Below are positions 1,150-40,496 of a stretch of 64,000 bases of DNA, piece after piece. Positions within the stretch are counted from its first letter, which is position 1, and every line of letters begins with the position of its first letter. The notes below the pieces were generated by a model that saw nothing but the letters and a program-made list of their open reading frames with translations, had not been told where the DNA came from and did not search any database. A program made the translations under genes and the position numbers. This stretch comes from Escherichia coli (GTDB lineage: Bacteria; Pseudomonadota; Gammaproteobacteria; Enterobacterales; Enterobacteriaceae), in NCBI RefSeq assembly GCF_024223415.1, contig NZ_CP100500.1; one strand, written 5' to 3'.

Positions 1150-1575
1150 CATGCCGGATACGGCCTACGGTTCGGCACAGACTTGTAGGCCTGATAAGAC
1201 GCGTCAAGCGTCGCATCAGGCATTGTGCGCCAACTGCCGGATGCGGCGTGAACGCCTTATCCGGCCTACGGTTCGGCACAAACCTGTAGGCATGATAAGA
1301 CGCGACAAGCGTCGCATCAGGCATTGTGCGCCGACTGCCGGATGCGGCGTGAACGCCTTATCCGGCCTACGGTTCGGCACAGACTTGTAGGCATGATAAG
1401 ACGCGACAAGCGTCGCATCAGGCATTGTGCGCCAACTGCCGGATGCGGCGTGAACGCCTTATCCGGCCTACGGTTCGGCACAAACCTGTAGGCATGATAA
1501 GACGCGTTAAGCGTCGCATCAGGCATTGTGCGCCAACTGCCGGATGCGGCGTGAACGCCTTATCCGGCCTACGGC
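1150..1575. repeat. BIME/REP array, about four tandem copies of a 101-bp unit
   Basis: The motif ccggatgcggcgtgaacgccttatccggcctacgg recurs at 1237, 1338, 1439 and 1540 (period 101 bp); near-identical 69-aa shadow ORFs are offset by 101 bp. Confidence 0.9.
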
Positions 1576-27688: not shown

Positions 27689-28645
27689 ATGAACCCGATT
27701 GCAGTTACCCTACTCACCGGTTTTTTAGGCGCGGGCAAAACCACCCTGCTGCGCCATATTCTTAATGAACAACACGGCTACAAGATTGCCGTGATTGAAA
27801 ACGAATTCGGCGAAGTCTCCGTTGATGATCAACTGATTGGCGACCGCGCCACGCAGATCAAAACGCTGACCAACGGCTGCATCTGCTGTTCGCGCTCCAA
27901 CGAGCTGGAAGACGCACTACTCGACCTGCTGGATAATCTCGATAAGGGCAATATTCAGTTCGATCGTCTGGTCATTGAATGCACCGGCATGGCCGATCCC
28001 GGCCCGATTATTCAGACCTTTTTCTCCCATGAGATTTTATGCCAGCGTTACCTGCTGGACGGCGTGATTGCGCTGGTGGATGCGGTACATGCCGATGAGC
28101 AGATGAACCAGTTCACCATCGCCCAGTCCCAGGTTGGCTACGCCGACCGTATTCTGCTGACGAAAACCGACGTCGCAGGCGAAGCAGAGAAACTGCTTGA
28201 ACGTCTGGCGCGCATCAACGCCCGTGCACCGGTCTACACCGTCACCCACGGCGACATCGACCTGGGTCTGCTGTTCAACACCAACGGTTTTATGCTGGAA
28301 GAGAATGTCGTCAGCACCAAACCGCGTTTCCACTTTATCGCGGACAAACAAAACGATATTTCGTCGATTGTGGTGGAACTGGATTACCCGGTAGATATCA
28401 GCGAAGTTTCCCGGGTGATGGAAAACCTGCTGCTGGAATCGGCAGATAAACTACTGCGTTACAAAGGGATGCTATGGATTGACGGCGAACCTAACCGCCT
28501 GCTGTTCCAGGGCGTCCAGCGCCTCTACAGCGCCGACTGGGACCGCCCGTGGGGCGATGAGAAACCGCATAGCACGATGGTGTTTATCGGGATTCAGCTG
28601 CCGGAGGATGAGATTCGGGCGGCGTTTGCGGGGTTGAGGAAGTAA
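27689..28645 (+). CDS. yjiA: CobW/ZNG1-family metal-chaperone GTPase
   Basis: P-loop LTGFLGAGKTTLL; CICC motif; start at ATG 27689 (MNPIAVTLL) rather than the upstream in-frame start that overlaps yjiX. Confidence 0.9.
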   Translation: MNPIAVTLLTGFLGAGKTTLLRHILNEQHGYKIAVIENEFGEVSVDDQLIGDRATQIKTLTNGCICCSRSNELEDALLDLLDNLDKGNIQFDRLVIECTGMADPGPIIQTFFSHEILCQRYLLDGVIALVDAVHADEQMNQFTIAQSQVGYADRILLTKTDVAGEAEKLLERLARINARAPVYTVTHGDIDLGLLFNTNGFMLEENVVSTKPRFHFIADKQNDISSIVVELDYPVDISEVSRVMENLLLESADKLLRYKGMLWIDGEPNRLLFQGVQRLYSADWDRPWGDEKPHSTMVFIGIQLPEDEIRAAFAGLRK

Positions 28646-28678
28646 TTTTGGATGATGGCCGCCATGTGGCGGCCTGAA

Positions 28679-28981
28679 TTATTTTTTGTTCTGATCGCGC
28701 AGCATCGCTTCACGTAAAATTGCGTTCAGGCGAGTTTGATAGCCTTTACCAGGTCGCTTCAGCCATTCCATCACATCAGCATCAATACGCACCGAAGCCT
28801 GGGTTTTCAATGGCCGATAAAACTTACCGCGTTCTGCGTTAGACCATTGCTCATCGCTGGAAGGCGGGATATCACTGTAATCAATATCTTCGTCGAATTT
28901 ATTCGCCAGTGCCTTCAGTTCGGCCTCATGCTGCACATCGAGTGTAGAGGGTGTCCCTCGTTTATGTTTAACCATGCTCAT
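28679..28981 (-). CDS. brnA: BrnA-like antitoxin (DUF4415/COG3514)
   Basis: C-terminal VRIDADVMEWLKRPGKGYQTRLNAILREAM is the hallmark BrnA motif; start at internal ATG (MSMVKHKRG) overlapping the brnT 3' end by 14 nt. Confidence 0.7.
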   Translation of the reverse strand: MSMVKHKRGTPSTLDVQHEAELKALANKFDEDIDYSDIPPSSDEQWSNAERGKFYRPLKTQASVRIDADVMEWLKRPGKGYQTRLNAILREAMLRDQNKK

Positions 28982-29255
28982 AGCGACTCCTCTCTTTACG
29001 ATCTGCTTTTCGTGCACTGATGATTCGAATAATTTCATTTCCGCTTTCGAAACGGATGGTATGCGCAACCAGAATAACCACGATACCGTGAACCAGGCCG
29101 ATAGTCTGCCAGCGATACTCACCGTTTTCTATGCGATCTTGCTGTGACAAATGTTGTGGATCATCAAACACTAACACCGCATCTTCAAAGCGGATGCCAT
29201 GTTTCACCCGATTACTTTTGGCCTTGTTTGCATCCCATTCAAACTCCATTGGCAT
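28968..29255 (-). CDS. brnT: BrnT-like toxin (DUF497/COG2929, RelE-fold ribonuclease)
   Basis: N-terminus ...MEFEWDANKAKSNRVKHGIRFEDAVLVFDD is the typical BrnT signature; toxin gene lies upstream of the antitoxin as in brnTA operons; start ambiguous among three nearby ATG (29249/29255/29264). Confidence 0.7.
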   Translation of the reverse strand: MPMEFEWDANKAKSNRVKHGIRFEDAVLVFDDPQHLSQQDRIENGEYRWQTIGLVHGIVVILVAHTIRFESGNEIIRIISARKADRKERSRYEHG

Positions 29256-29451
29256 AGTTGCCATCCCTAATTGTATATACAAAAATGTATCTACAATTAT
29301 TCTGCAATTATAGCGTTGATGTTGGAAATAGCATCACGTTTTGGATAATCAACCATGAAATTGACAATGAGTAAGTTGGACTTGATTCATCCAATAGAAT
29401 TTCTCGCCTGACATGGCACACTAAACACCTCGCTGTCGTTAAGGGATTACC

Positions 29452-30618
29452 GTGAAAAACTATAAAGTTATTACCCCGCTTTTTCCTACCTATGCACAGG
29501 TTAAAGCTATGATGAAAGCCGTCTCAGGCTATTCCCTGAAAGCGGTACGCAATATGATTACCGCCATTCGCGATCAAACCGGTACGCCGCAAAAACCCGT
29601 TGACTGGTCGGAACCTGACCTGTGGATCAGCGAACGCTTAACGGGCGAAGATGCCGACATCGCCCGTCGTATTTGGGATACAGATAATCACATATTGAAC
29701 CCGCGCCACAGCTACGGCTGCTACTTATTCCTCAACTATCCCCAGTTTGAGCTGATGGAAAGCACGCCAGATGATACCTGGCAGCCCACCTCGCGCGGGC
29801 AAAAATTCCTGCAAGATGACGAAAAAACGCTGCGTTCACTGGATGACCAGGAAGGCATTCTGCAACTGCTTGAGCTGCTGGCTGGCCGGGAAATGTCGCG
29901 CCGCGCCGATTTATTGCCGGAATGGCAGGCCTTTTTGCATCAGCATTCGAAATTCGCGTCTGCAAGTTCAGTGAAAAGCACGCTCTACTCCCGTCTCTAT
30001 AACCTTATTGACCGTGGCATGGTTACTCGCGAAGGTATGAGCTATTGCATCACCGATACCGGACGCGCCTGGCTTGGAAAAGCGTTGCCAGCACGAAAAA
30101 GCGATCCGCGTAAAGAGCTGTTGGAAGCGGTGAAACGCTACAACGAGCAGCAAAAAGAGCTGCTGCGCGAACAAATCAGCACGATGAACCCGTACAAATT
30201 TGAACAACTGGTCGGTCAATTACTGGAAGCAATGGGCTACGAGCAGGTCGAAGTGACCAAAGCCTCAGGCGATAAAGGTGTGGACGTGATTGGTCAGGTG
30301 CAGGTCGGCATCACCACTATTACCGAAGTGGTGCAGGTCAAAAGAATGCAGAACACCATCACTCGACCGTATATCGACCAGTTGCGCGGAGCGTTGCCTT
30401 ACCACAAAGCCATTCGCGGTACGCTCATCACCACCGGGAAATTTGCGGCGAAATGTGCAGAAGCGGCGCTCTTTCCGGGGGCAGCGCCCATTACGCTTAT
30501 CGACGGCGATCGCTTACTGGAACTGTTAATCGAAAATAACGTCGGCATTCGCCGCAGCAATGCAGTGGAATTGCTGGATGTAGATTTGCAGTTGTTTGAT
30601 GAGCTGGAGATGGATTAA
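29452..30618 (+). CDS. Mrr-family (type IV-like) restriction endonuclease with extended N-terminal region
   Basis: C-terminal Mrr_cat-like core (GDKGVDVIG...TEVVQVKR, D...QxK variant); GTG start preceded by aaggga; ends 63 bp before hsdM on the same strand. Confidence 0.75.
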   Translation: MKNYKVITPLFPTYAQVKAMMKAVSGYSLKAVRNMITAIRDQTGTPQKPVDWSEPDLWISERLTGEDADIARRIWDTDNHILNPRHSYGCYLFLNYPQFELMESTPDDTWQPTSRGQKFLQDDEKTLRSLDDQEGILQLLELLAGREMSRRADLLPEWQAFLHQHSKFASASSVKSTLYSRLYNLIDRGMVTREGMSYCITDTGRAWLGKALPARKSDPRKELLEAVKRYNEQQKELLREQISTMNPYKFEQLVGQLLEAMGYEQVEVTKASGDKGVDVIGQVQVGITTITEVVQVKRMQNTITRPYIDQLRGALPYHKAIRGTLITTGKFAAKCAEAALFPGAAPITLIDGDRLLELLIENNVGIRRSNAVELLDVDLQLFDELEMD

Positions 30619-30681
30619 AGGGCGAAATCTGCCGTCTCTACCATTACAATAGCGACCCAATTTATCTGAACAGAGTTCATC

Positions 30682-32301
30682 ATGGCCAAAGCACCAACTA
30701 AAAAAGCCAAAGCAAAGAAAGGCTTTGAAGAAACATTATGGGATACTGCAAACCAACTTCGCGGTAGCGTTGAGTCCTCCGAATACAAGCACGTGGTGTT
30801 AAGCCTCGTGTTCCTGAAATTCATCAGCGATAAGTTTGAAGCACGCCGCAAAAAAATGATTGCCGATGGGCAAGCTGACTTCCTTGAGATGGAAGTGTTC
30901 TACCAGCAGGACAACATTTTCTACCTGCCGGAAGAGGCGCGCTGGTCATTTATCAAACAAAATGCCAAACAGGACGATATTGCGGTTCGTATTGACACCG
31001 CCCTCTCGACCATTGAGAAACGTAACCCAACCCTGAAAGGCGCGCTGCCAGACAACTACTTCAGCCGTCAGAATCTGGAAACCAAAAAACTGGCGTCACT
31101 GATTGATACCATCGACAACGTCGAAACGCTGGCACACGAAACTGACGTTGAAACGTTGTCGAAAGAAGACCTGGTCGGACGCGTTTACGAATACTTCCTC
31201 GGTAAGTTTGCCGCAACCGAAGGCAAAGGCGGTGGTGAGTTCTACACGCCCAAATGTGTGGTTACGCTGTTAACTGAAATGCTCGAACCTTTCCAGGGCA
31301 AAATCTATGACCCATGCTGCGGCTCGGCGGGGATGTTCGTGCAGTCGGTGAAGTTTGTCGAGAGCCATCAGGGTAAAAGTCGTGATATCGCGCTGTATGG
31401 TCAGGAACTGACAGCCACGACGTATAAACTGGCAAAAATGAACCTCGCCATTCGCGGCCTTTCAGCAAACCTCGGCGAACGCCCGGCAGACACTTTCTTT
31501 AGCGACCAGCACCCGGACCTGAAAGCCGACTACATTCTGGCGAACCCGCCGTTCAACCTGAAAGACTGGCGTAATGAAGCCGAATTAACCAAAGATCCAC
31601 GTTTTGCTGGTTATCGTATGCCGCCAACCGGTAACGCCAACTACGGCTGGATTTTGCATATGCTCTCCAAGCTGTCGGCTAACGGCACAGCAGGTTTTGT
31701 GCTGGCAAACGGTTCGATGAGTTCTAACACCAGCGGTGAAGGCGAGATCCGTGCGCAGATGATCGAAAATGATCTGATCGACTGCATGATCGCCCTACCT
31801 GGTCAGTTGTTTTACACCACGCAGATCCCGGTGTGTTTATGGTTTATGACCAAATCGAAGGCTGCCGACCCGGCCAAAGGTTATCGTGATCGTCAGGGCG
31901 AGACGCTGTTTATTGATGCGCGTAACCTCGGCACCATGATTAGCCGCACAACTAAAGAGTTAACGGCGGAAGATATTGCCACCATCGCCGATACCTACCA
32001 TGCATGGCGCAGTACGCCGGAAGAACTGGCTGCACGGATTGCGCGTGGTGACAGCAAGCTGGAAAAATATGAAGACCAGGCAGGCTTCAGCAAAGTTGCG
32101 ACCCTGCAAGATATTAAAGATAACGACTACGTGCTGACGCCGGGCCGCTATGTGGGTGCAGCCGAGCAGGAAGAGGACGGCGTGGCATTTGAGACAAAAA
32201 TGCGGGAGTTGTCGAAGACGTTGTTTGAGCAGATGAAGCAGGCGGAAGAACTGGATTGTGCGATTCGCCAGAATCTGGAGGCGCTGGGTTATGGGGAGTA
32301 A
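30682..32301 (+). CDS. hsdM: Type I R-M N6-adenine DNA methyltransferase subunit
   Basis: 539-aa ORF with SAM-binding motif I (DPCCGSAGMF) and catalytic NPPF (ILANPPFNL); N-terminus unlike EcoKI HsdM. Confidence 0.9.
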   Translation: MAKAPTKKAKAKKGFEETLWDTANQLRGSVESSEYKHVVLSLVFLKFISDKFEARRKKMIADGQADFLEMEVFYQQDNIFYLPEEARWSFIKQNAKQDDIAVRIDTALSTIEKRNPTLKGALPDNYFSRQNLETKKLASLIDTIDNVETLAHETDVETLSKEDLVGRVYEYFLGKFAATEGKGGGEFYTPKCVVTLLTEMLEPFQGKIYDPCCGSAGMFVQSVKFVESHQGKSRDIALYGQELTATTYKLAKMNLAIRGLSANLGERPADTFFSDQHPDLKADYILANPPFNLKDWRNEAELTKDPRFAGYRMPPTGNANYGWILHMLSKLSANGTAGFVLANGSMSSNTSGEGEIRAQMIENDLIDCMIALPGQLFYTTQIPVCLWFMTKSKAADPAKGYRDRQGETLFIDARNLGTMISRTTKELTAEDIATIADTYHAWRSTPEELAARIARGDSKLEKYEDQAGFSKVATLQDIKDNDYVLTPGRYVGAAEQEEDGVAFETKMRELSKTLFEQMKQAEELDCAIRQNLEALGYGE

Positions 32302-33604
32302 TGCTATTACAACAATAATTGGTGAACACTTGCTGATTAGAAATGGCAAATCTTCGCCATCAAGAGCCATAACAGGAGAATATCCTGTTTATGGTTCAAA
32401 TGGAATAATAGGTTATTCAGATGAATATAACGCTAATGAAAATACAATAATTATCGGGCGTGTTGGGTCATATTGTGGTTCAGTTTATATTTCCGATAAA
32501 AAATGTTGGGTCACTGATAATGCAATAATTGGAACCGCAAAGAATGAAAATGAAAGTCATTTTTGGTTCTATCTTTTAAAAAAAATAGATTTGAACAATT
32601 ATAGTACTGGTTCAGGCCAACCTCTCATTAACCAAACAATAATTAATACAATATCCGTTACCATTCCTAAGCTCAGTGAGAAAAGAGTAGCCATTGGACA
32701 TTTTTTACGCCACTTTGATCAAAAGATAAATTTATCTCTTAATATCAATCAATCCTTGGAACAAATGTCCCAAACCTTGTTCAAATCCTGGTTTGTGGAT
32801 TTCGATCCGGTGATTGATAACGCGCTGGACGCGGGAAACCCAATCCCGGAAGCGATGCAATCTCGCGCAGAACTGCGTCAAAAAGTACGTAATAGTGCAG
32901 ATTTTAAACCGCTTCTAGCGGAAATCCGCTCGCTTTTCCCAAGTGAATTTGAAGAAACCGAACCAGGATGGTTACCTAAGGGCTGGAAACATGGTAATTT
33001 AAATGATGTCACGAAGATCTTAAGTGGGTTTGCTTTTAAGAGTAAAGACTTTGGTGATGAAGGTAAAAGTGTCATAAAAATAAAGAACATTAATATCGAT
33101 AAAACAATTGATATAGATCATACTCAAAAAATTTCTGATATCGTAGCCAAAGACGTAAAGCGTTTTCAATTATTTGATGCCGATATTTTGATGGCTATGA
33201 CTGGTGCCACGGTCGGTAAATTTGGAATATTAGCATCAAAAAATCATGAAGAATATTATCTTAACCAACGAGTTGCGAAGTTTGAAACAGATAAAAAAGC
33301 TTACCTTTATTGTATATTGAATCAAGAAAGTACCGAAAGATTTATAATCAATACAGCTCAGGGCAGTGCACAACCAAATATCAGTGCTAAAGATATTTTA
33401 AGTATTCCACTCACACTACCATCAAACGAAATAATAACTATATTCAATACATTTGTTGATCCTTTATTCTACAGAATGATAGCGAATACAAAAGTTAGTT
33501 TAAGTCTAACAGAACTCCGCGACACCTTGCTCCCAAAACTCATCTCCGGCGAGCTCTCCCTGGAAGATCTTCCGGATCTCAGCACCAATACAGAAGCCGC
33601 ATAA
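32291..33604 (+). CDS. hsdS: Type I R-M specificity subunit
   Basis: Two AT-rich variable target-recognition regions separated by a conserved central region (SLEQMSQTLFKSWFVDFDP) plus conserved C-terminal helix (LTELRDTLLPKLISGEL); ATG at 32291 overlaps the hsdM 3' end. Confidence 0.85.
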   Translation: MGSNAITTIIGEHLLIRNGKSSPSRAITGEYPVYGSNGIIGYSDEYNANENTIIIGRVGSYCGSVYISDKKCWVTDNAIIGTAKNENESHFWFYLLKKIDLNNYSTGSGQPLINQTIINTISVTIPKLSEKRVAIGHFLRHFDQKINLSLNINQSLEQMSQTLFKSWFVDFDPVIDNALDAGNPIPEAMQSRAELRQKVRNSADFKPLLAEIRSLFPSEFEETEPGWLPKGWKHGNLNDVTKILSGFAFKSKDFGDEGKSVIKIKNINIDKTIDIDHTQKISDIVAKDVKRFQLFDADILMAMTGATVGKFGILASKNHEEYYLNQRVAKFETDKKAYLYCILNQESTERFIINTAQGSAQPNISAKDILSIPLTLPSNEIITIFNTFVDPLFYRMIANTKVSLSLTELRDTLLPKLISGELSLEDLPDLSTNTEAA

Positions 33605-33612
33605 CGCATTTT

Positions 33613-33637
33613 GCCCCTGTAAAATCAGGGGCTTTCT
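33613..33637 (+). terminator. Hairpin with T-run between hsdS and hsdR (possible attenuator)
   Basis: gcccctg-taaaat-caggggc followed by tttct, 9 bp after the hsdS stop and about 60 bp before the hsdR ATG. Confidence 0.45.
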
Positions 33638-33698
33638 GGTAAGGTTTTCTACTGATACGGGAATGCTTACCAGAAATTAGCCAGGGTTGGAGCGCGAT

Positions 33699-36600
33699 AT
33701 GAGTCTCTCTTTCAGTGAAGCAAAATTAGAACAAGCGATCATTGAACTGCTGCAGGATCAGGGATATCAACACCTGATCGGCGATAATGTCCCACGTTCA
33801 AGTCTCGATCAGGTCATCATCGAAGACGATCTCCGTCATTATTTAGCGGCACGCTACCAGCCTGATGGCATTACTGAAGAAGAGATTCAACGGCTGATCA
33901 AACAGTTCACCACGCTTCCGGCCTCCGACCTTTATGAAAGCAACAAAACATTTTGTCGCTGGCTGGCAAATGGTTTTCTGTTCAAACGCGACGATCGGCA
34001 ACAAAAAGATCTCTATATTGAATTGCTCGACACCCGGCATCTACCCGCCGCACTGCGCCAGATATTTGACACCGACGATGTCCCGTTGCAACAGGCGGCG
34101 GAACTCCCGCCTTCCTATATTAATCCGCCGCTTAACCGGATTAAGATTGTTAACCAGCTTAAAATCTCCGGTAAAGATAATCAGACTCGTATTCCTGACG
34201 GCATTCTCTATATCAACGGTCTGCCACTGGTCGTCTTTGAATTTAAAAGTGCGGTGCGCGAGCAAGAAGCCAGTATTGGCGATGCCTGGAAGCAGCTCTG
34301 TAAACGCTATCGCCGGGATATTCCGCAACTGTTTATCTACAACGCGCTCTGCGTTATCAGCGATGGCGTAAATAACCGGATGGGCAACCTGTTTGCGCCC
34401 TATGAATACTTTTACTCATGGCGCAAAGTCACCGGTAATGAAAACCGTGAACAGGACGGAATTCCATCATTGCACTCAATGATTCAGGGGCTGTTTCATC
34501 CGGTACGTCTGCTGGACGTGATTAAAAACTTTATCTGCTTCCCGGATAAAGCCAAGCACGAAGTAAAAATTTGCTGCCGATATCCGCAGTACTATGCCGC
34601 CCGCAAACTCTATTACAGCATCAAGCAAGCGCGTAAACCTTTCGGTAGCGGTAAAGGCGGCACCTACTTTGGCGCAACGGGCTGTGGCAAAAGTTACACC
34701 ATGCAATTTTTAACGCGTCTTTTGATGAAGAGCGTGGAGTTTGCCAGCCCGACCATTGTTTTGATCACCGACCGCACCGATCTGGACGATCAGCTTTCTG
34801 CGCAAATGTGCAACGCCAAAAATTACATTGGCGACGACACCATCGTTCCTGTTACCAGCCGTGAAGATTTGCGTAATCAACTGGCGGGACGCAATAGTGG
34901 CGGTGTATTCCTGACAACGATCCATAAATTCACCGAAGACACCGAACTCCTTTCTGAACGCAGCAATATCATTTGCATCTCGGACGAAGCACATCGCAGC
35001 CAGGTTAACCTCGACCAGAAAGTCATCGTCGATAAAGAAAGCGGAAAAGTGCGCAAAACTTATGGCTTTGCGAAATACCTGCACGATTCACTGCCAAACG
35101 CCACCTATGTTGGCTTTACCGGCACACCGATTGACGCGACGCTCGATGTCTTCGGTGAGGTGATCGACAGTTACACCATGACCGAATCCGTTCAGGATGA
35201 AATCACTGTACGCATCGTGTACGAAGGCCGTGCGGCTAAAGTGATCCTGGACTCCAGTAAACTGGAAGAAGTTGAAAAGTATTACGAAGAGTGCGCAAAC
35301 GCAGGCACCAATGAGTGGCAAATCGACGAAAGCAAAAAAGCCACCGCAACCATGAATGCGGTACTGGGTGATGAAGATCGGTTAAAAGCCCTCGCGGAAG
35401 ATTTTGCCAAACATTATGAAAAACGCGTAGACGAAGGTTCCACCGTAAAAGGCAAAGCCATGTTTGTTTGTGCCAGCCGTGAAATTGCCTGGGATTTCTA
35501 CCGTCAGCTTAAAGCTATTCGCCCTGCCTGGTTTGAAGTGAAGCAAGCACCCGATGGCGTCGTCCTGACGGAACAGGAGCAGAAAGAGTTACCGCCTTCA
35601 GAAATGGTGAAGATGGTCATGACGCGCGGTAAAGATGACGACGAGGCGCTTTATGATTTACTGGGCACAAAAGAATATCGTAAAGAGCTGGATAAACAGT
35701 TTAAAAACGCTAAATCGAATTTCAAAATTGCCATTGTTGTTGATATGTGGCTGACCGGTTTCGACGTCCCGGAACTGGATACCATCTATATTGATAAACC
35801 CTTACAAAAACATAATCTTATCCAGACCATTTCTCGCGTTAACCGTAAACTGGAAGGCAAAAGTAAAGGGTTAGTGGTGGACTACATCGGCATTAAAAGT
35901 CAGATGAACCAGGCACTGGCAATGTATTCCCGCATTGATGCCACCAACTTTGAAGATATTCAGCAATCGGTAATAGAAGTTAAAAACCATCTCGATTTGT
36001 TGGGGCAAGTCTTTTACGAATTTGACAGTCGGGATTATTTTAGTGGTGAGCCACAAGCGCAATTATCCTGCCTCAACCGCGCGGCGGAATTTGTTCTGCG
36101 TACCCAGAAAGTTGAACGTCGTTTTATGGGACTGGTTAAACGCATGAAAGCCGCCTACGACGTCTGCTGCGGCAGCGAAGCATTATCACAGACAGAACGT
36201 GACTATATTCACTATTATCTTGCTGTTCGTTCAATTGTTTTCAAACTGACGAAAGGTGACGCACCGGATGTCACCCAGATGAATGCACGCGTTCGTGAAA
36301 TGATTGCAGAAGCGTTAAAAGCTGATGGCGTAGAAGAGATTTATTTTCTTGGCGATAAAAAAGCGGAATCCATCGATATTTTTGACGAAGATTATCTGGC
36401 ACGAATTAACAAGATCAAACTTCCGGCAACGAAGATCCAGTTATTACAAAAATTACTGGAAAAAGCGATCAGCGACTTCAAGAAAGTGAACCAGTTGCAA
36501 GGGATTAACTTCACCCGCCGCTTCCAGGCAATTATAGATCGTTATAATGAGCGGCGAGAAGATGATGTACTCAACGGTGAAGAATTCGATACATTCAGTC

Positions 36601-36962
36601 AGGAAATGACCGATATTATCTATGATATTAAAACCGAAATGGGCACCTGGGCCGATTTAGGCATTGATATTGAAGAAAAAGCGTTTTTCGACATTCTTGC
36701 TCATATGCGCGATAAATATCAGTTCACCTATGACGATGAAAAAATGCTGTCACTGGCAAAAGAGATGAAAAGCGTGGTTGACAACACATCGAAATATCCT
36801 GACTGGAGTAAACGTGATGATATTAAAGCGAAACTGAAAGTTGAACTTATTCTGCTTCTACACAAGCATAAGTTCCCGCCAGTAGCGAATGATGATGTTT
36901 ATATGGGTGTGCTGGCACAGGCAGAGAATTTTAAAGAACACCATATGAGTGCTTTAAATTAA
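33699..36962 (+). CDS. hsdR: Type I R-M restriction subunit (nuclease/helicase)
   Basis: N-terminal PD-(D/E)xK (…LPLVVFEFKS), Walker A (GATGCGKS), DEAH box (ISDEAHRSQ); ATG 33699 preceded by ggag. Confidence 0.9.
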   Translation: MSLSFSEAKLEQAIIELLQDQGYQHLIGDNVPRSSLDQVIIEDDLRHYLAARYQPDGITEEEIQRLIKQFTTLPASDLYESNKTFCRWLANGFLFKRDDRQQKDLYIELLDTRHLPAALRQIFDTDDVPLQQAAELPPSYINPPLNRIKIVNQLKISGKDNQTRIPDGILYINGLPLVVFEFKSAVREQEASIGDAWKQLCKRYRRDIPQLFIYNALCVISDGVNNRMGNLFAPYEYFYSWRKVTGNENREQDGIPSLHSMIQGLFHPVRLLDVIKNFICFPDKAKHEVKICCRYPQYYAARKLYYSIKQARKPFGSGKGGTYFGATGCGKSYTMQFLTRLLMKSVEFASPTIVLITDRTDLDDQLSAQMCNAKNYIGDDTIVPVTSREDLRNQLAGRNSGGVFLTTIHKFTEDTELLSERSNIICISDEAHRSQVNLDQKVIVDKESGKVRKTYGFAKYLHDSLPNATYVGFTGTPIDATLDVFGEVIDSYTMTESVQDEITVRIVYEGRAAKVILDSSKLEEVEKYYEECANAGTNEWQIDESKKATATMNAVLGDEDRLKALAEDFAKHYEKRVDEGSTVKGKAMFVCASREIAWDFYRQLKAIRPAWFEVKQAPDGVVLTEQEQKELPPSEMVKMVMTRGKDDDEALYDLLGTKEYRKELDKQFKNAKSNFKIAIVVDMWLTGFDVPELDTIYIDKPLQKHNLIQTISRVNRKLEGKSKGLVVDYIGIKSQMNQALAMYSRIDATNFEDIQQSVIEVKNHLDLLGQVFYEFDSRDYFSGEPQAQLSCLNRAAEFVLRTQKVERRFMGLVKRMKAAYDVCCGSEALSQTERDYIHYYLAVRSIVFKLTKGDAPDVTQMNARVREMIAEALKADGVEEIYFLGDKKAESIDIFDEDYLARINKIKLPATKIQLLQKLLEKAISDFKKVNQLQGINFTRRFQAIIDRYNERREDDVLNGEEFDTFSQEMTDIIYDIKTEMGTWADLGIDIEEKAFFDILAHMRDKYQFTYDDEKMLSLAKEMKSVVDNTSKYPDWSKRDDIKAKLKVELILLLHKHKFPPVANDDVYMGVLAQAENFKEHHMSALN

Positions 36963-36969
36963 TTATGAA

Positions 36970-37000
36970 GGCCGGATACACTTTGTTATCCGGCCATTCT
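36970..37000 (+). terminator. Hairpin after hsdR
   Basis: ggccggata-cactttgt-tatccggcc followed by attct; weak T-tract. Confidence 0.45.
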
Positions 37001-37082
37001 GAATTAACGTTAATTTCTCTTCCAGATCTTTCCAGTAACGCTTTTATTATTTTCTATTTTTAGCTGGACTATCCCTGTATTT

Positions 37083-37098
37083 ACTGATGATATATCCA
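37083..37098. promoter_or_regulatory. LexA (SOS) box upstream of symE
   Basis: CTGATGATATATCCAG fits CTG-N10-CAG with an AT-rich centre, about 80 bp upstream of the symE ATG. Confidence 0.6.
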
Positions 37099-37104
37099 GG
37101 TATT

Positions 37105-37183
37105 TAGCGCGGTGCGGATGTGCGCCAACACACCCGCACCGCTCATCACAATCACTATTTTCAAGGAATAGCAGTTATGACTG
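37105..37183 (-). ncRNA. symR: SymR antisense sRNA (approximate coordinates)
   Basis: Placed by analogy with the K-12 symE/SymR type I TA arrangement, where a ~77-nt antisense RNA overlaps the symE RBS and start codon; boundaries not determined from sequence. Confidence 0.35.
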
Positions 37184-37515
37184 ACACGCATTCTATTGCA
37201 CAACCGTTCGAAGCAGAAGTCTCCCCGGCAAATAACCGCCAATTAACCGTGAGTTATGCGAGTCGCTACCCGGATTACAGCCGTATTCCCGCCATCACTC
37301 TGAAAGGTCAGTGGCTGGAAGCCGCCGGTTTTGCTACCGGCACGGCGGTAGATGTCAAAGTGATGGACGGCTGTATTGTCCTCACCGCCCAACCACCCGC
37401 CGCCGAAGAGAGCGAACTGATGCAGTCGCTACGCCAGGTGTGCAAACTGTCGGCACGTAAACAAAAGCAGGTGCAGGAGTTTATTGGGGTGATTAGTAGC
37501 AAAACGCCACGCTAA
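37177..37515 (+). CDS. symE: SOS-induced toxin SymE (AbrB-fold)
   Basis: [55 protein letters not shown]...; start at internal ATG 37177 with RBS aagga. Confidence 0.85.
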
Positions 37516-37557
37516 GTTTCTCTCCCCTTCCCCATACGTGAAGGGGAATTGCCCCCA

Positions 37558-37722
37558 TCACTCCACATCCTCCTTGCGTAACCCAATATCCCTCAACCGT
37601 TCATCACTCATTTGCTGTAACACTCGTCGGGTCTGCATTTGTCGCCGCCAACGCCTCACCGCCTGCCAGAGTTGCACAAGTCTGATAAACGGCGTTTTGG
37701 CTTTGTTTTCGTGAAATTCCAT
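37558..37722 (-). CDS. yjiS: DUF1127 small protein YjiS (54 aa)
   Basis: Hand translation of the minus strand: MEFHENKAKTPFIRLVQLWQAVRRWRRQMQTRRVLQQMSDERLRDIGLRKEDVE with RBS gaggagg; below the 60-aa cutoff so absent from the ORF track. Confidence 0.8.
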   Translation of the reverse strand: MEFHENKAKTPFIRLVQLWQAVRRWRRQMQTRRVLQQMSDERLRDIGLRKEDVE

Positions 37723-37898
37723 CTGCTGCCTCCTCATCTTTCAGAGGCTTCATCATCCGCCTTCTGGCAGTTCACAATACAGATGCAAATATTAGTTTTA
37801 TTTAACATACAGACAGGTTAAAACAGCATCTGCATCCGGTTTTTTAGCCTCATCTGTACCGGTTTTTCTCTCTGTATGGTCTAAATAAGGAATACAGC

Positions 37899-39551: not shown

Positions 39552-40496
39552 TTAGTACTCGATCCATGGATCGCGCTTGCTTTCAGGCAAGGGTTGCTCT
39601 AATGCCTGCATTTGCTCTGCCGAAAGTCCAGTATATCGTTGTATCCATTCAGGATCCGCACCGTTCTGCAAAAGCAATCTAAGGAGGCGTTGTTCCCCTT
39701 CTTCTTTCCCCTTTTCCATCCCTAACAGCCATCCATCATTATGAATTCGCTCTGCAATCGTCATTATTCGCTCCCTGTGTTGTGGCATTCGACTGGTTAG
39801 TTCGCTGATAAACTCTTTAAAACTCGCTTCATCGCCAGCCAGTAAAATGTAATTTAACAGCGCGGTTATCTGGCTGTCATTAGCGCACCCTGTAACCAGT
39901 AATACTGCCAGTTGATCAATAAGCCCCATTAGATCGCGCTGGCGAATATGCTTTTGGATCAACTCCAACAGGGCGACTCTGCGGTGCTGCACAATCTCGT
40001 CGTCTGGCACGACAGTGATATCCACCAGCGGGAACGCGGCATTATAAAGTTTCCGTGCGGTAGTCGGGTCGGCAAATTCGTCCAGCCAGCACAGGGACCA
40101 GGGGTAAGGACTACGGCTACCGTGATAAAACAGCATCGGGATGACCAGCGGTAGCTGCCGGCGTTTATCATGCTCGATATGGCGCTGCATCACCGCCATG
40201 GAATAGCGCATCAGGCGAAAGGCCATATGAATATCCTCACGGCTCTGATGTTCAATCACCACATAAATATAGCCATCGCCTTCGCGGGTCTTTACCGACC
40301 ACAGAATATCGGAATGTAGCGCCCGCAATTTTTCATCGACAAAGCTGGCGGATTCCAGTTTTAAGCTGTCGAGATCGCACAGTTCCCGTAAATCTTTAGG
40401 TAAGTGGATCTCCATAAAATCCCGCGCGGTGTCAGGGTGCATGAGAAAGGATTTAAATAATGCGTCATGCGGCGTGCTGGTCGTGAAGTTTGTCAT
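39552..40496 (-). CDS. rpnD: Rpn-family recombination-promoting nuclease (YhgA-like)
   Basis: 314-aa ORF with N-terminal HDALFKSF... and VVIEHQS PD-(D/E)xK-like core typical of Rpn/YhgA; intact reading frame. Confidence 0.75.

Follow-up and report, generated by a model that had tools for sequence, protein, structure and literature searches.

A type ID cassette with a probably reassorted hsdS allele at the immigration control region of Escherichia coli

We examined the yjiA-yjiS interval in a stretch of 64,000 nucleotides from Escherichia coli (contig NZ_CP100500.1 of assembly GCF_024223415.1), hereafter the window. Between the two anchors lie, in order, brnA and brnT, a gene for a 388-aa nuclease with an Mrr_cat domain, hsdM-hsdS-hsdR, and symR and symE with a LexA box (Table 1). 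Gene names follow the RefSeq annotation of the near-identical locus in SCU-316. All listed genes were found where the original prediction, made from the sequence, had placed them, and the gene content and order that it gave agree with the ORFs and their Pfam, PADLOC, and NCBIfam matches. The ORFs are all intact and the catalytic motifs are present. The locus is an ordinary and already known type ID form of the variable E. coli immigration control region.

Table 1. Features of the yjiA-yjiS interval, with positions in the window.
Feature	Position	Strand	Description	Evidence
yjiA	27689..28645	+	Conserved left anchor	RefSeq annotation of SCU-316 locus; blastn breakpoints
GC-rich hairpin, terminator-like	28657..28674	.	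Between convergent yjiA and brnA; 7 pairs, all G-C	Terminator scan
brnA	28679..28981	-	Predicted type II antitoxin, 100 aa; WP_000063148.1	Pfam BrnA_antitoxin 3.1e-17, full model
brnT	28968..29255	-	Predicted type II ribonuclease toxin, 95 aa; WP_001295743.1	Pfam BrnT_toxin 7.1e-25, full model
Mrr-family nuclease	29452..30618	+	388 aa; presumed type IV	Pfam Mrr_cat 3.8e-29; PADLOC candidate PDC-S02
hsdM	30682..32301	+	Type ID m6A methyltransferase subunit, 539 aa	PADLOC MTase_I 2e-192
hsdS	32291..33604	+	Specificity subunit, 437 aa	PADLOC Specificity_I 4e-122
HsdS TRD1	32291-32740	+		S.EcoMII alignment, per-domain identities, GC by segment
HsdS central conserved region	32741-32995	+		S.EcoMII alignment, per-domain identities, GC by segment
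HsdS TRD2	32996-33490	+		S.EcoMII alignment, per-domain identities, GC by segment
HsdS C-terminal conserved region	33491-33604	+		S.EcoMII alignment, per-domain identities, GC by segment
Hairpin with weak T-tract	33613..33632	+	Between hsdS and hsdR	Terminator scan; sequence
hsdR	33699..36962	+	Type ID translocase-nuclease subunit, 1087 aa	PADLOC REase_I 1717 bits
LexA box CTG-N10-CAG	37084..37099	+	CTGATGATATATCCAG, symE promoter	Sequence
symR	37106..37182	-	Antisense RNA, symE antitoxin	Rfam RF01809 91.7 bits (gathering score 61), E 2.5e-17, full length
symE	37177..37515	+	SOS-induced toxin / nucleoid-associated protein, 112 aa	NCBIfam equivalog 222.7 bits, cut-off 132
yjiS	37558..37722	-	Right anchor	blastn breakpoints; annotations

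The immigration control region of K-12 has the same yjiA and yjiS anchors and the same symE/symR module with its LexA box, and it likewise combines a type I system with a type IV enzyme. By blastn, homology to K-12 breaks off with the stop codon of yjiA (28645) and returns at 37046, just upstream of symR. Within these breakpoints K-12 lacks brnTA, its mrr is convergent with yjiA, divergent from hsdR and different in its N-terminal domain, and its type I system is the type IA EcoKI. The EcoKI proteins are only 24% (HsdM) and 25% (HsdR, over 219 aa) identical to those of the window and the genes are in the order R-M-S rather than M-S-R, which rejects type IA for the window and bears out the predicted difference between its HsdM and that of K-12. 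K-12 also has mcrBC, yjiV, and yjiT; about 57 bp (37495-37551) stand in place of the 7.6 kb that holds them. K-12 McrB and McrC queries gave no tblastn match at E<=1e-3 anywhere in the window, in line with the predicted absence of mcrBC. Given the breakpoints and the low HsdM and HsdR identities, the prediction of an alternative allele set of known families at the immigration control region stands. The cassette stands in place of the mrr-hsdRMS(IA) segment of K-12, an exchange that probably took place by homologous recombination between the conserved flanking regions.

The interval begins and ends with toxin-antitoxin genes. BrnT/BrnA is a type II system first described in Brucella abortus. 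Here too it is a toxin-first, overlapping two-gene operon (brnT upstream of brnA, 14-nt overlap), with both domains encoded by an adjacent, co-oriented pair. At this locus, brnTA is predicted to be a type II toxin-antitoxin pair and an independent module. It is encoded in 2111 of 5426 complete E. coli genomes and adjoins yjiA in 39% of E. coli genomes, even beside an otherwise empty locus. At the right end, SymE is 94% identical to K-12 SymE, and the LexA box predicted for symE is present and differs from the K-12 site by one base, within the N10 spacer. The antisense SymR, detected by Rfam, was absent from the original prediction. With the SymE protein, a SymR antisense to the 5' end of symE, and a promoter that contains a LexA box, symE/symR is a conserved LexA-controlled type I toxin-antitoxin pair, again an independent module.

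The hsd genes encode what is expected of a type I system: an HsdM with the SAM-binding motif I and the catalytic motif, in the predicted forms DPCCGSAGM and NPPF, an HsdS with two TRDs set apart by conserved regions, and an HsdR with PD-(D/E)xK nuclease and DEAD/H-box motor motifs (VFEFK, GATGCGKS, and DEAH, again as predicted). HsdR scores 469.7 bits in NCBIfam (cut-off 284.55). HsdM reaches 172 bits against the generic NCBIfam hsdM model, under the curated cut-off of 243, which reflects distance from the seed sequences of the model and no defect. The hsdM and hsdS reading frames overlap by 11 nt. The hairpin between hsdS and hsdR may be an attenuator, and hsdR may have a promoter of its own.

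Type I families have a mutual identity of less than about 40%. HsdM is 99% identical (534/539) to M.EcoMII of the ST131 strain EC958 and HsdR is 99% identical (1080/1087) to R.EcoMII. An hsdM-hsdS-hsdR operon encodes EcoMII, whose R subunit shares 92% identity with that of StySBLI (Forde 2015, PMC4659465), the type ID prototype. By transitivity through this reported value, the system of the window belongs to the family founded by StySBLI, EcoR9I, and KpnAI. Two further families were rejected. HsdM shares 27% identity with its CFT073 counterpart in the type IB system EcoCFTI, HsdR had no match there at E<=0.01, type IB HsdR proteins are about 810 aa compared with 1087 aa, and the order M-S-R again contrasts with R-M-S. 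Matches to the type IC EcoR124 were only distant in phmmer (HsdM 1.5e-38; HsdR 1.9e-24, partial).

As in established type I biology, HsdM2-HsdS1 would methylate one adenine per strand of a bipartite target set by the two TRDs of HsdS. With two HsdR added, the complex would bind unmethylated targets on incoming DNA, pull the DNA in an ATP-driven manner and cut at a distance. We consider it very unlikely that the system is decayed or confined to methylation with its restriction lost. There are seven HsdR and five HsdM substitutions relative to EC958, and the literature found shows restriction for no close relative; for EcoMII, methylation was demonstrated and restriction was not (Forde 2015, PMC4659465). 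However, there are no frameshifts or stops, both proteins equal their EC958 counterparts in length, and VFEFK, the Walker A sequence GATGCGKS, DEAH, and both methyltransferase motifs (I and IV) are preserved without substitution.

Unlike HsdM and HsdR, HsdS diverges from EcoMII. It is 39% identical to S.EcoMII overall and conserved in the center and the C-terminus only, where the two are nearly identical. Identity across TRD1 is 23%, and TRD2 gives only a local match of 65 aa at 29%. The GC content of hsdS follows the same division, with 0.327 (aa 1-150) and 0.309 (aa 236-400) compared with 0.463 and 0.491 in the conserved parts, so the two AT-rich variable regions of the original prediction are real. 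The EcoMII target, AAC(N4)CTTT, was assigned by knockout and SMRT sequencing, and transcription of M.EcoMII was above that of dam (Forde 2015, PMC4659465). As both TRDs are unlike those of EcoMII, the HsdS of the window is predicted to recognize a different sequence. A specificity different from those of StySBLI, EcoR9I, and KpnAI (CGA(N6)TACC, AGCA(N6)TGA, and GGCA(N6)TTC) is also expected. Type ID members have 6 bp between the methylated adenines of their targets (review table, PMC12707154).

To find where the two TRDs occur, we compared them with other alleles. The full-length hsdS allele is encoded in 8 of 5426 complete E. coli genomes, the carriers including chicken, turkey, calf, and human isolates, and the exact combination of TRD1 and TRD2 forms one cluster of 40 sequences. 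Taken singly, TRD1 is shared at 97-100% identity by most of the E. coli type ID alleles listed, in proteins of at least six lengths. Among the matches listed, TRD2 is 99% identical in three alleles with other TRD1s; it is also found at 77-84% identity in Citrobacter, Enterobacter, and Kluyvera. That TRD2 stands beside different TRD1s identifies the hsdS allele as a reassortment, which probably arose when a crossover within the conserved center of the gene joined two separately circulating type ID TRDs. A phase-variable system, with a shufflon or a repeat-switched hsdS, was rejected, as a second hsdS and significant repeats, whether inverted or direct, are absent from 28300-37800.

EcoMII (RM.EcoMII, EC958_0076-0078), with the adjacent 'Mrr' (EC958_0079), occupies the same site with the same neighbors, order and orientation; the 'Mrr' gene was noted beside EcoMII in a syntenic position (Forde 2015, PMC4659465). 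We are therefore confident, from the alignments, that the cassette shares its haplotype with the EcoMII locus of EC958 and departs from it in carrying another hsdS allele, a reassorted one. By the original prediction, a near-identical match to a characterized type I system would make the allele a known one; EcoMII provides that match in HsdM, HsdR, and the neighboring genes but not in HsdS.

The original prediction had also allowed for novelty in the combination of genes. Every gene between yjiA and symE does differ from K-12, and the full-length hsdS allele is rare. However, the whole interval in the same order is found in at least 789 of the 5426 complete genomes (about one in seven), including those of EC958 and Nissle 1917, and the conserved parts of type ID hsdS are found in 860. 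A 2025 review describes this locus as holding type IA, IB, or ID systems and type IV enzymes, brnAT, symE/symR, and rpn, with type ID in 12% of loci and no type IC there (PMC12707154). As the order recurs in at least 789 genomes, in the characterized EC958 locus and in that description, the gene set is not new, and with both TRDs known from other alleles a new or rare defence combination, or an allele set new as a whole, is extremely improbable. The only unusual part of the cassette is hsdS, a reshuffle of two TRDs known from other strains.

The remaining gene, encoded in 880 of the 5426 genomes, codes for a protein whose N-terminal module (aa ~1-215) is of winged-helix type and precedes an Mrr_cat PD-QxK domain (aa 243-359). 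Its D278...Q295-x-K297 motif is near-invariant in 40 homologues, and the fold is a MarR/PadR-type winged helix followed by an AF1548/AspBHI/MspJI-type nuclease. Like EcoKMrr of K-12, the protein has a C-terminal Mrr_cat domain with D...QxK (31% identity over 173 aa), which places it in the Mrr family by its catalytic domain, and an N-terminal DNA-binding region of winged-helix type. It is longer than EcoKMrr (388 compared with 304 aa), and its first 215 aa are without detectable homology, having no significant Pfam match, Mrr_N included, and no BLASTP similarity to EcoKMrr. In other organisms the N-terminal module is joined with nuclease domains of further kinds: HNH, REase_II-like, and NsnA-like. 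In a literature search we found no experimental test of any member of this 388-aa family.

The protein most likely works by itself, as a modification-dependent (type IV) nuclease. Alternatively, it could work together with the type ID system, as a fourth component or a co-regulated effector. Its gene and type ID hsdS co-occur nearly one to one (880 compared with 860 genomes), and it is co-oriented with hsdM and 63 bp upstream, with a gap in which no terminator is predicted, whereas K-12 mrr is divergent from hsdR. We regard such a partnership as unlikely. The protein is identical at 388/388 positions to its counterpart in EC958, a strain with a different HsdS specificity, so its target cannot track type I methylation. 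A 46%-identical homologue adjoins an SNF2 helicase, an MmeI/Eco57I-type methyltransferase-nuclease, and an Mrr_N protein, with no type I system. Type IA and IB cassettes each have their own unrelated type IV gene beside yjiA, and fusion of the N-terminal module to various nucleases is typical of self-contained reader-plus-nuclease enzymes. For the stand-alone type IV enzyme, a fuller proposal is possible though doubtful: that the N-terminal module is a portable reader of DNA or its modification, with a specificity unlike that of EcoKMrr and independent of the linked type ID methylation, and that, separately, the reassorted HsdS defines a type ID target new to the literature.

Beyond bookkeeping, the locus is of little import. 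The Mrr-like family is the one real gap at it. The locus is a textbook case of type I specificity diversifying by TRD reassortment across a conserved central region. The cassette would act as a restriction barrier to incoming DNA in the roughly 15% of E. coli that carry type ID systems, and the target of this allele, once known, would aid the transformation of carrier strains and the prediction of plasmid and phage host range.

The gene order between yjiA and yjiS was taken from the open reading frames (ORFs) of the window and from the RefSeq annotation of E. coli SCU-316, which matches it at 100.0% over 28600-37600. The families and order named in the original prediction are borne out by the ORFs, the annotation, Pfam, PADLOC and NCBIfam, and all the motifs it quoted are found in the translations. 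Every feature it listed is real, including the LexA box of symE; the SymR antisense RNA, found with Rfam, was missing from its list. McrB, McrC and YjiT of K-12 have no tblastn match anywhere in the window, in agreement with the claimed lack of mcrBC. The GC content is patchy, as had also been noted. The two variable parts of hsdS are at 0.327 and 0.309 and its conserved parts at 0.463 and 0.491, compared to 0.495 for the whole window. The intergenic region between brnT and the mrr-like gene is at 0.367 and the 3' half of hsdR at 0.429. A promoter scan returned no more sites than in shuffled sequence.

Features of the window, with the evidence for each
Feature	Position	Strand	Evidence or remark
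Tandem array, yjjV-yjjW intergenic	1161-1574		4.1 copies of a 101-bp unit, 96% matches
tsr-btsT segment	24271-25091		821 bp
ORF for WP_000934391.1	24440-24982	+	180-aa hypothetical protein
btsT, yjiX	upstream of yjiA		ORFs and SCU-316 annotation
yjiA	27689-28645	+	ORFs and SCU-316 annotation
brnA	28679-28981	-	Pfam BrnA_antitoxin 3e-17
brnT	28968-29255	-	Pfam BrnT_toxin 7e-25
mrr-like gene (388-aa "restriction endonuclease")	29452-30618	+	Pfam Mrr_cat 3.8e-29, residues 243-359
N-terminal module of the Mrr-like protein	29452-30096	+	aa 1-215
hsdM	30682-32301	+	PADLOC MTase_I 2e-192
hsdS	32291-33604	+	PADLOC Specificity_I 4e-122
hsdR	33699-36962	+	PADLOC REase_I 1717 bits; NCBIfam HsdR 469.7 bits, cut-off 284.55
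LexA box CTGATGATATATCCAG	37084-37099		one spacer base differs from the K-12 site
SymR antisense RNA	37106-37182	-	Rfam 91.7 bits, gathering score 61
symE	37177-37515	+	NCBIfam SymE 222.7 bits, cut-off 132
yjiS	37558-37722	-	ORFs and SCU-316 annotation
yjiR, rpn, mdtM	beyond yjiS, in that order
rpn	39552-40496	-	314 aa, intact
Pentapeptide-repeat protein	46122-48491	+	789 aa, uninterrupted
Region without EC958 counterpart	50831-56452
iatD	51057-56297	+	1746 aa; inverse autotransporter IatD in SCU-316

Homology to K-12 ends at the yjiA stop codon (28645) and restarts at 37046, just upstream of symR/symE, with 93.8% identity to 37494; the replaced cassette is thus 28646-37045. A second restart lies at 37552, in yjiS. 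Where K-12 has mcrBC, yjiV and yjiT in 7.6 kb, the window has about 57 bp. The cassette is flanked by neither direct nor inverted repeats, and the locus has no second hsdS and no simple-sequence repeat, so nothing indicates a mobile element or phase variation. Beyond yjiS, the gene for the Rpn-family recombination-promoting nuclease sits at the position of the rpnD pseudogene of K-12.

The restriction-modification genes are distant from the type IA system EcoKI (24% identity for HsdM; 25% over 219 aa for HsdR) and from the type IB system of CFT073 (27% for HsdM, no match for HsdR). EcoR124, of type IC, gave distant matches only. In contrast, the gene order of the window from yjiA to mdtM recurs unchanged in EC958, an ST131 strain, with identical residues at 1080 of 1087 positions in HsdR, 534 of 539 in HsdM and all 388 in the Mrr-like protein. 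The EC958 system, named EcoMII, is an hsdM-hsdS-hsdR operon with a syntenic "Mrr" adjoining (Forde et al. 2015, PMC4659465). Between its R subunit and that of StySBLI, the type ID prototype, identity reaches 92%; AAC(N4)CTTT was assigned to the EC958 system by knockout and SMRT sequencing, and the transcript level of M.EcoMII exceeds that of dam (PMC4659465). Given the near-identity to EC958 and the reported similarity of EcoMII to StySBLI, the window system can be placed, indirectly, in type ID.

Outside the locus, the tsr-btsT segment is absent from both K-12 and EC958 and is present in 365 of the 5426 complete E. coli genomes sampled, O157:H7 strains included. For WP_000934391.1, encoded in it, neither Pfam nor PADLOC gives a significant match (the best is TnsA-like N-terminal, E 0.11); an "ALEIK" stretch is reminiscent of the PD-(D/E)xK nuclease motif. 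The pentapeptide-repeat gene, between yjiK-like and DUF3343 (ytiA-like) genes, is likewise missing in K-12 and EC958, and in the annotation of SCU-316, a near-identical strain, it is a pseudogene with a frameshift; internal repeats lie around 48125-48398. K-12 has no gene at the position of iatD, between kptA and yjiJ. The repeat unit between yjjV and yjjW has a REP/BIME-type palindromic sequence inside.

The full-length hsdS allele is found in only eight of the 5426 genomes (SCU-316, Ec-RL2-1X, O78 strain 3, FDAARGOS_1250, G5, 3908, GPEC1446 and NCTC10444); in a large protein collection it corresponds to a single 90% cluster with 40 members. Its product is 39% identical overall to S.EcoMII, the HsdS of EcoMII. 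The center (aa ~150-235) and C-terminus (aa ~405-437) are near-identical while both target recognition domains (TRDs) differ, which rules out the AAC(N4)CTTT specificity of EcoMII. We scored the TRDs domain by domain against the best 120 homologues. TRD1 (aa 1-150) recurs at 97-100% identity in most E. coli alleles among the matches listed. Proteins sharing it vary in length, with at least six lengths represented and one such allele on at least 1000 contigs, and no listed allele sharing TRD1 has detectable similarity to TRD2 of the window. TRD2 (aa 236-400) recurs at 99% identity in E. coli alleles with other TRD1s (homologues P0002, P0004 and P0005), and Citrobacter, Enterobacter and Kluyvera have versions of it at 77-84% identity. 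Judged by these identities, the allele is a product of the classical shuffling of recognition domains about the conserved central region. Against the S subunits of known specificity of EcoKI, EcoCFTI and EcoMII, TRD identity does not exceed 29%, too low for a half-site to be transferred. In the PDB, the recognition domain of 7EEW, an M-S fusion mentioned in a single paper, on crystallographic methods, shares about 50% identity with TRD1. The full-text literature search returned no methylome data on the carrier strains or the HsdS accession, WP_097177238.1, and an ST101 methylome preprint has no matching hsdS allele.

K-12 Mrr resembles only the C-terminal 173 aa of the Mrr-like protein (31% identity), with the D...QxK catalytic residues aligned; D278, Q295 and K297 are nearly invariant among 40 homologues. 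Residues 1-215, a winged-helix module, have no significant Pfam match, and in other organisms the module also occurs in fusions with HNH, REase_II-like and NsnA-like nuclease domains (P0240, P0237, P0255, P0259, P0270, P0243). The full-length architecture has 161 representatives at E<=1e-30 (50% clustering), and PADLOC holds the family as candidate PDC-S02. A less likely reading makes the protein a fourth subunit of the type I enzyme. The protein is, however, identical in two strains whose HsdS specificities differ. Furthermore, among three distant homologues outside E. coli, two are on contigs too short to show a neighborhood and the other, 46% identical, adjoins an unrelated restriction-modification gene set. 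This argues against a fourth subunit and for what is probably a self-contained, modification-dependent nuclease.

Among the 5426 genomes, the Mrr-like gene is present in 880, always as a single chromosomal copy, and the conserved parts of the window hsdS are matched in 860. These counts indicate that the Mrr-like gene and type ID hsdMSR travel together as a unit. The brnTA segment is fixed more widely beside yjiA (2111 genomes) than this unit. One carrier is B7A, whose locus is otherwise empty save an IS1. There (locus record L007, 12001-13700) brnTA is followed by an IS1 pseudogene, a dienelactone hydrolase gene fragment and directly mdtM; symE, yjiS, yjiR and rpn are missing from its immigration control region. 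CFT073 has a third version, with a DUF262 protein, type IB hsdRMS, symE and GmrSD but no brnTA.

At least 80% of 28600-37600 is found in one place in 789 of the 5426 genomes, Nissle 1917 and numerous ST131 strains among them. According to the 2025 EcoSal Plus review (PMC12707154), which covers 9040 enterobacterial genomes, type IA systems are at the locus in 14%, IB in 11% and ID in 12%. As the two agree, the combination is known and common, and the novelty suggested for it does not hold, the EC958 locus having the same arrangement. Anything new here would be confined to the sequence recognised through the rare, reassorted hsdS allele and to what the neighbouring Mrr-like nuclease does. The observation was accurate and the identification right, but what they describe is an ordinary haplotype that is already documented.
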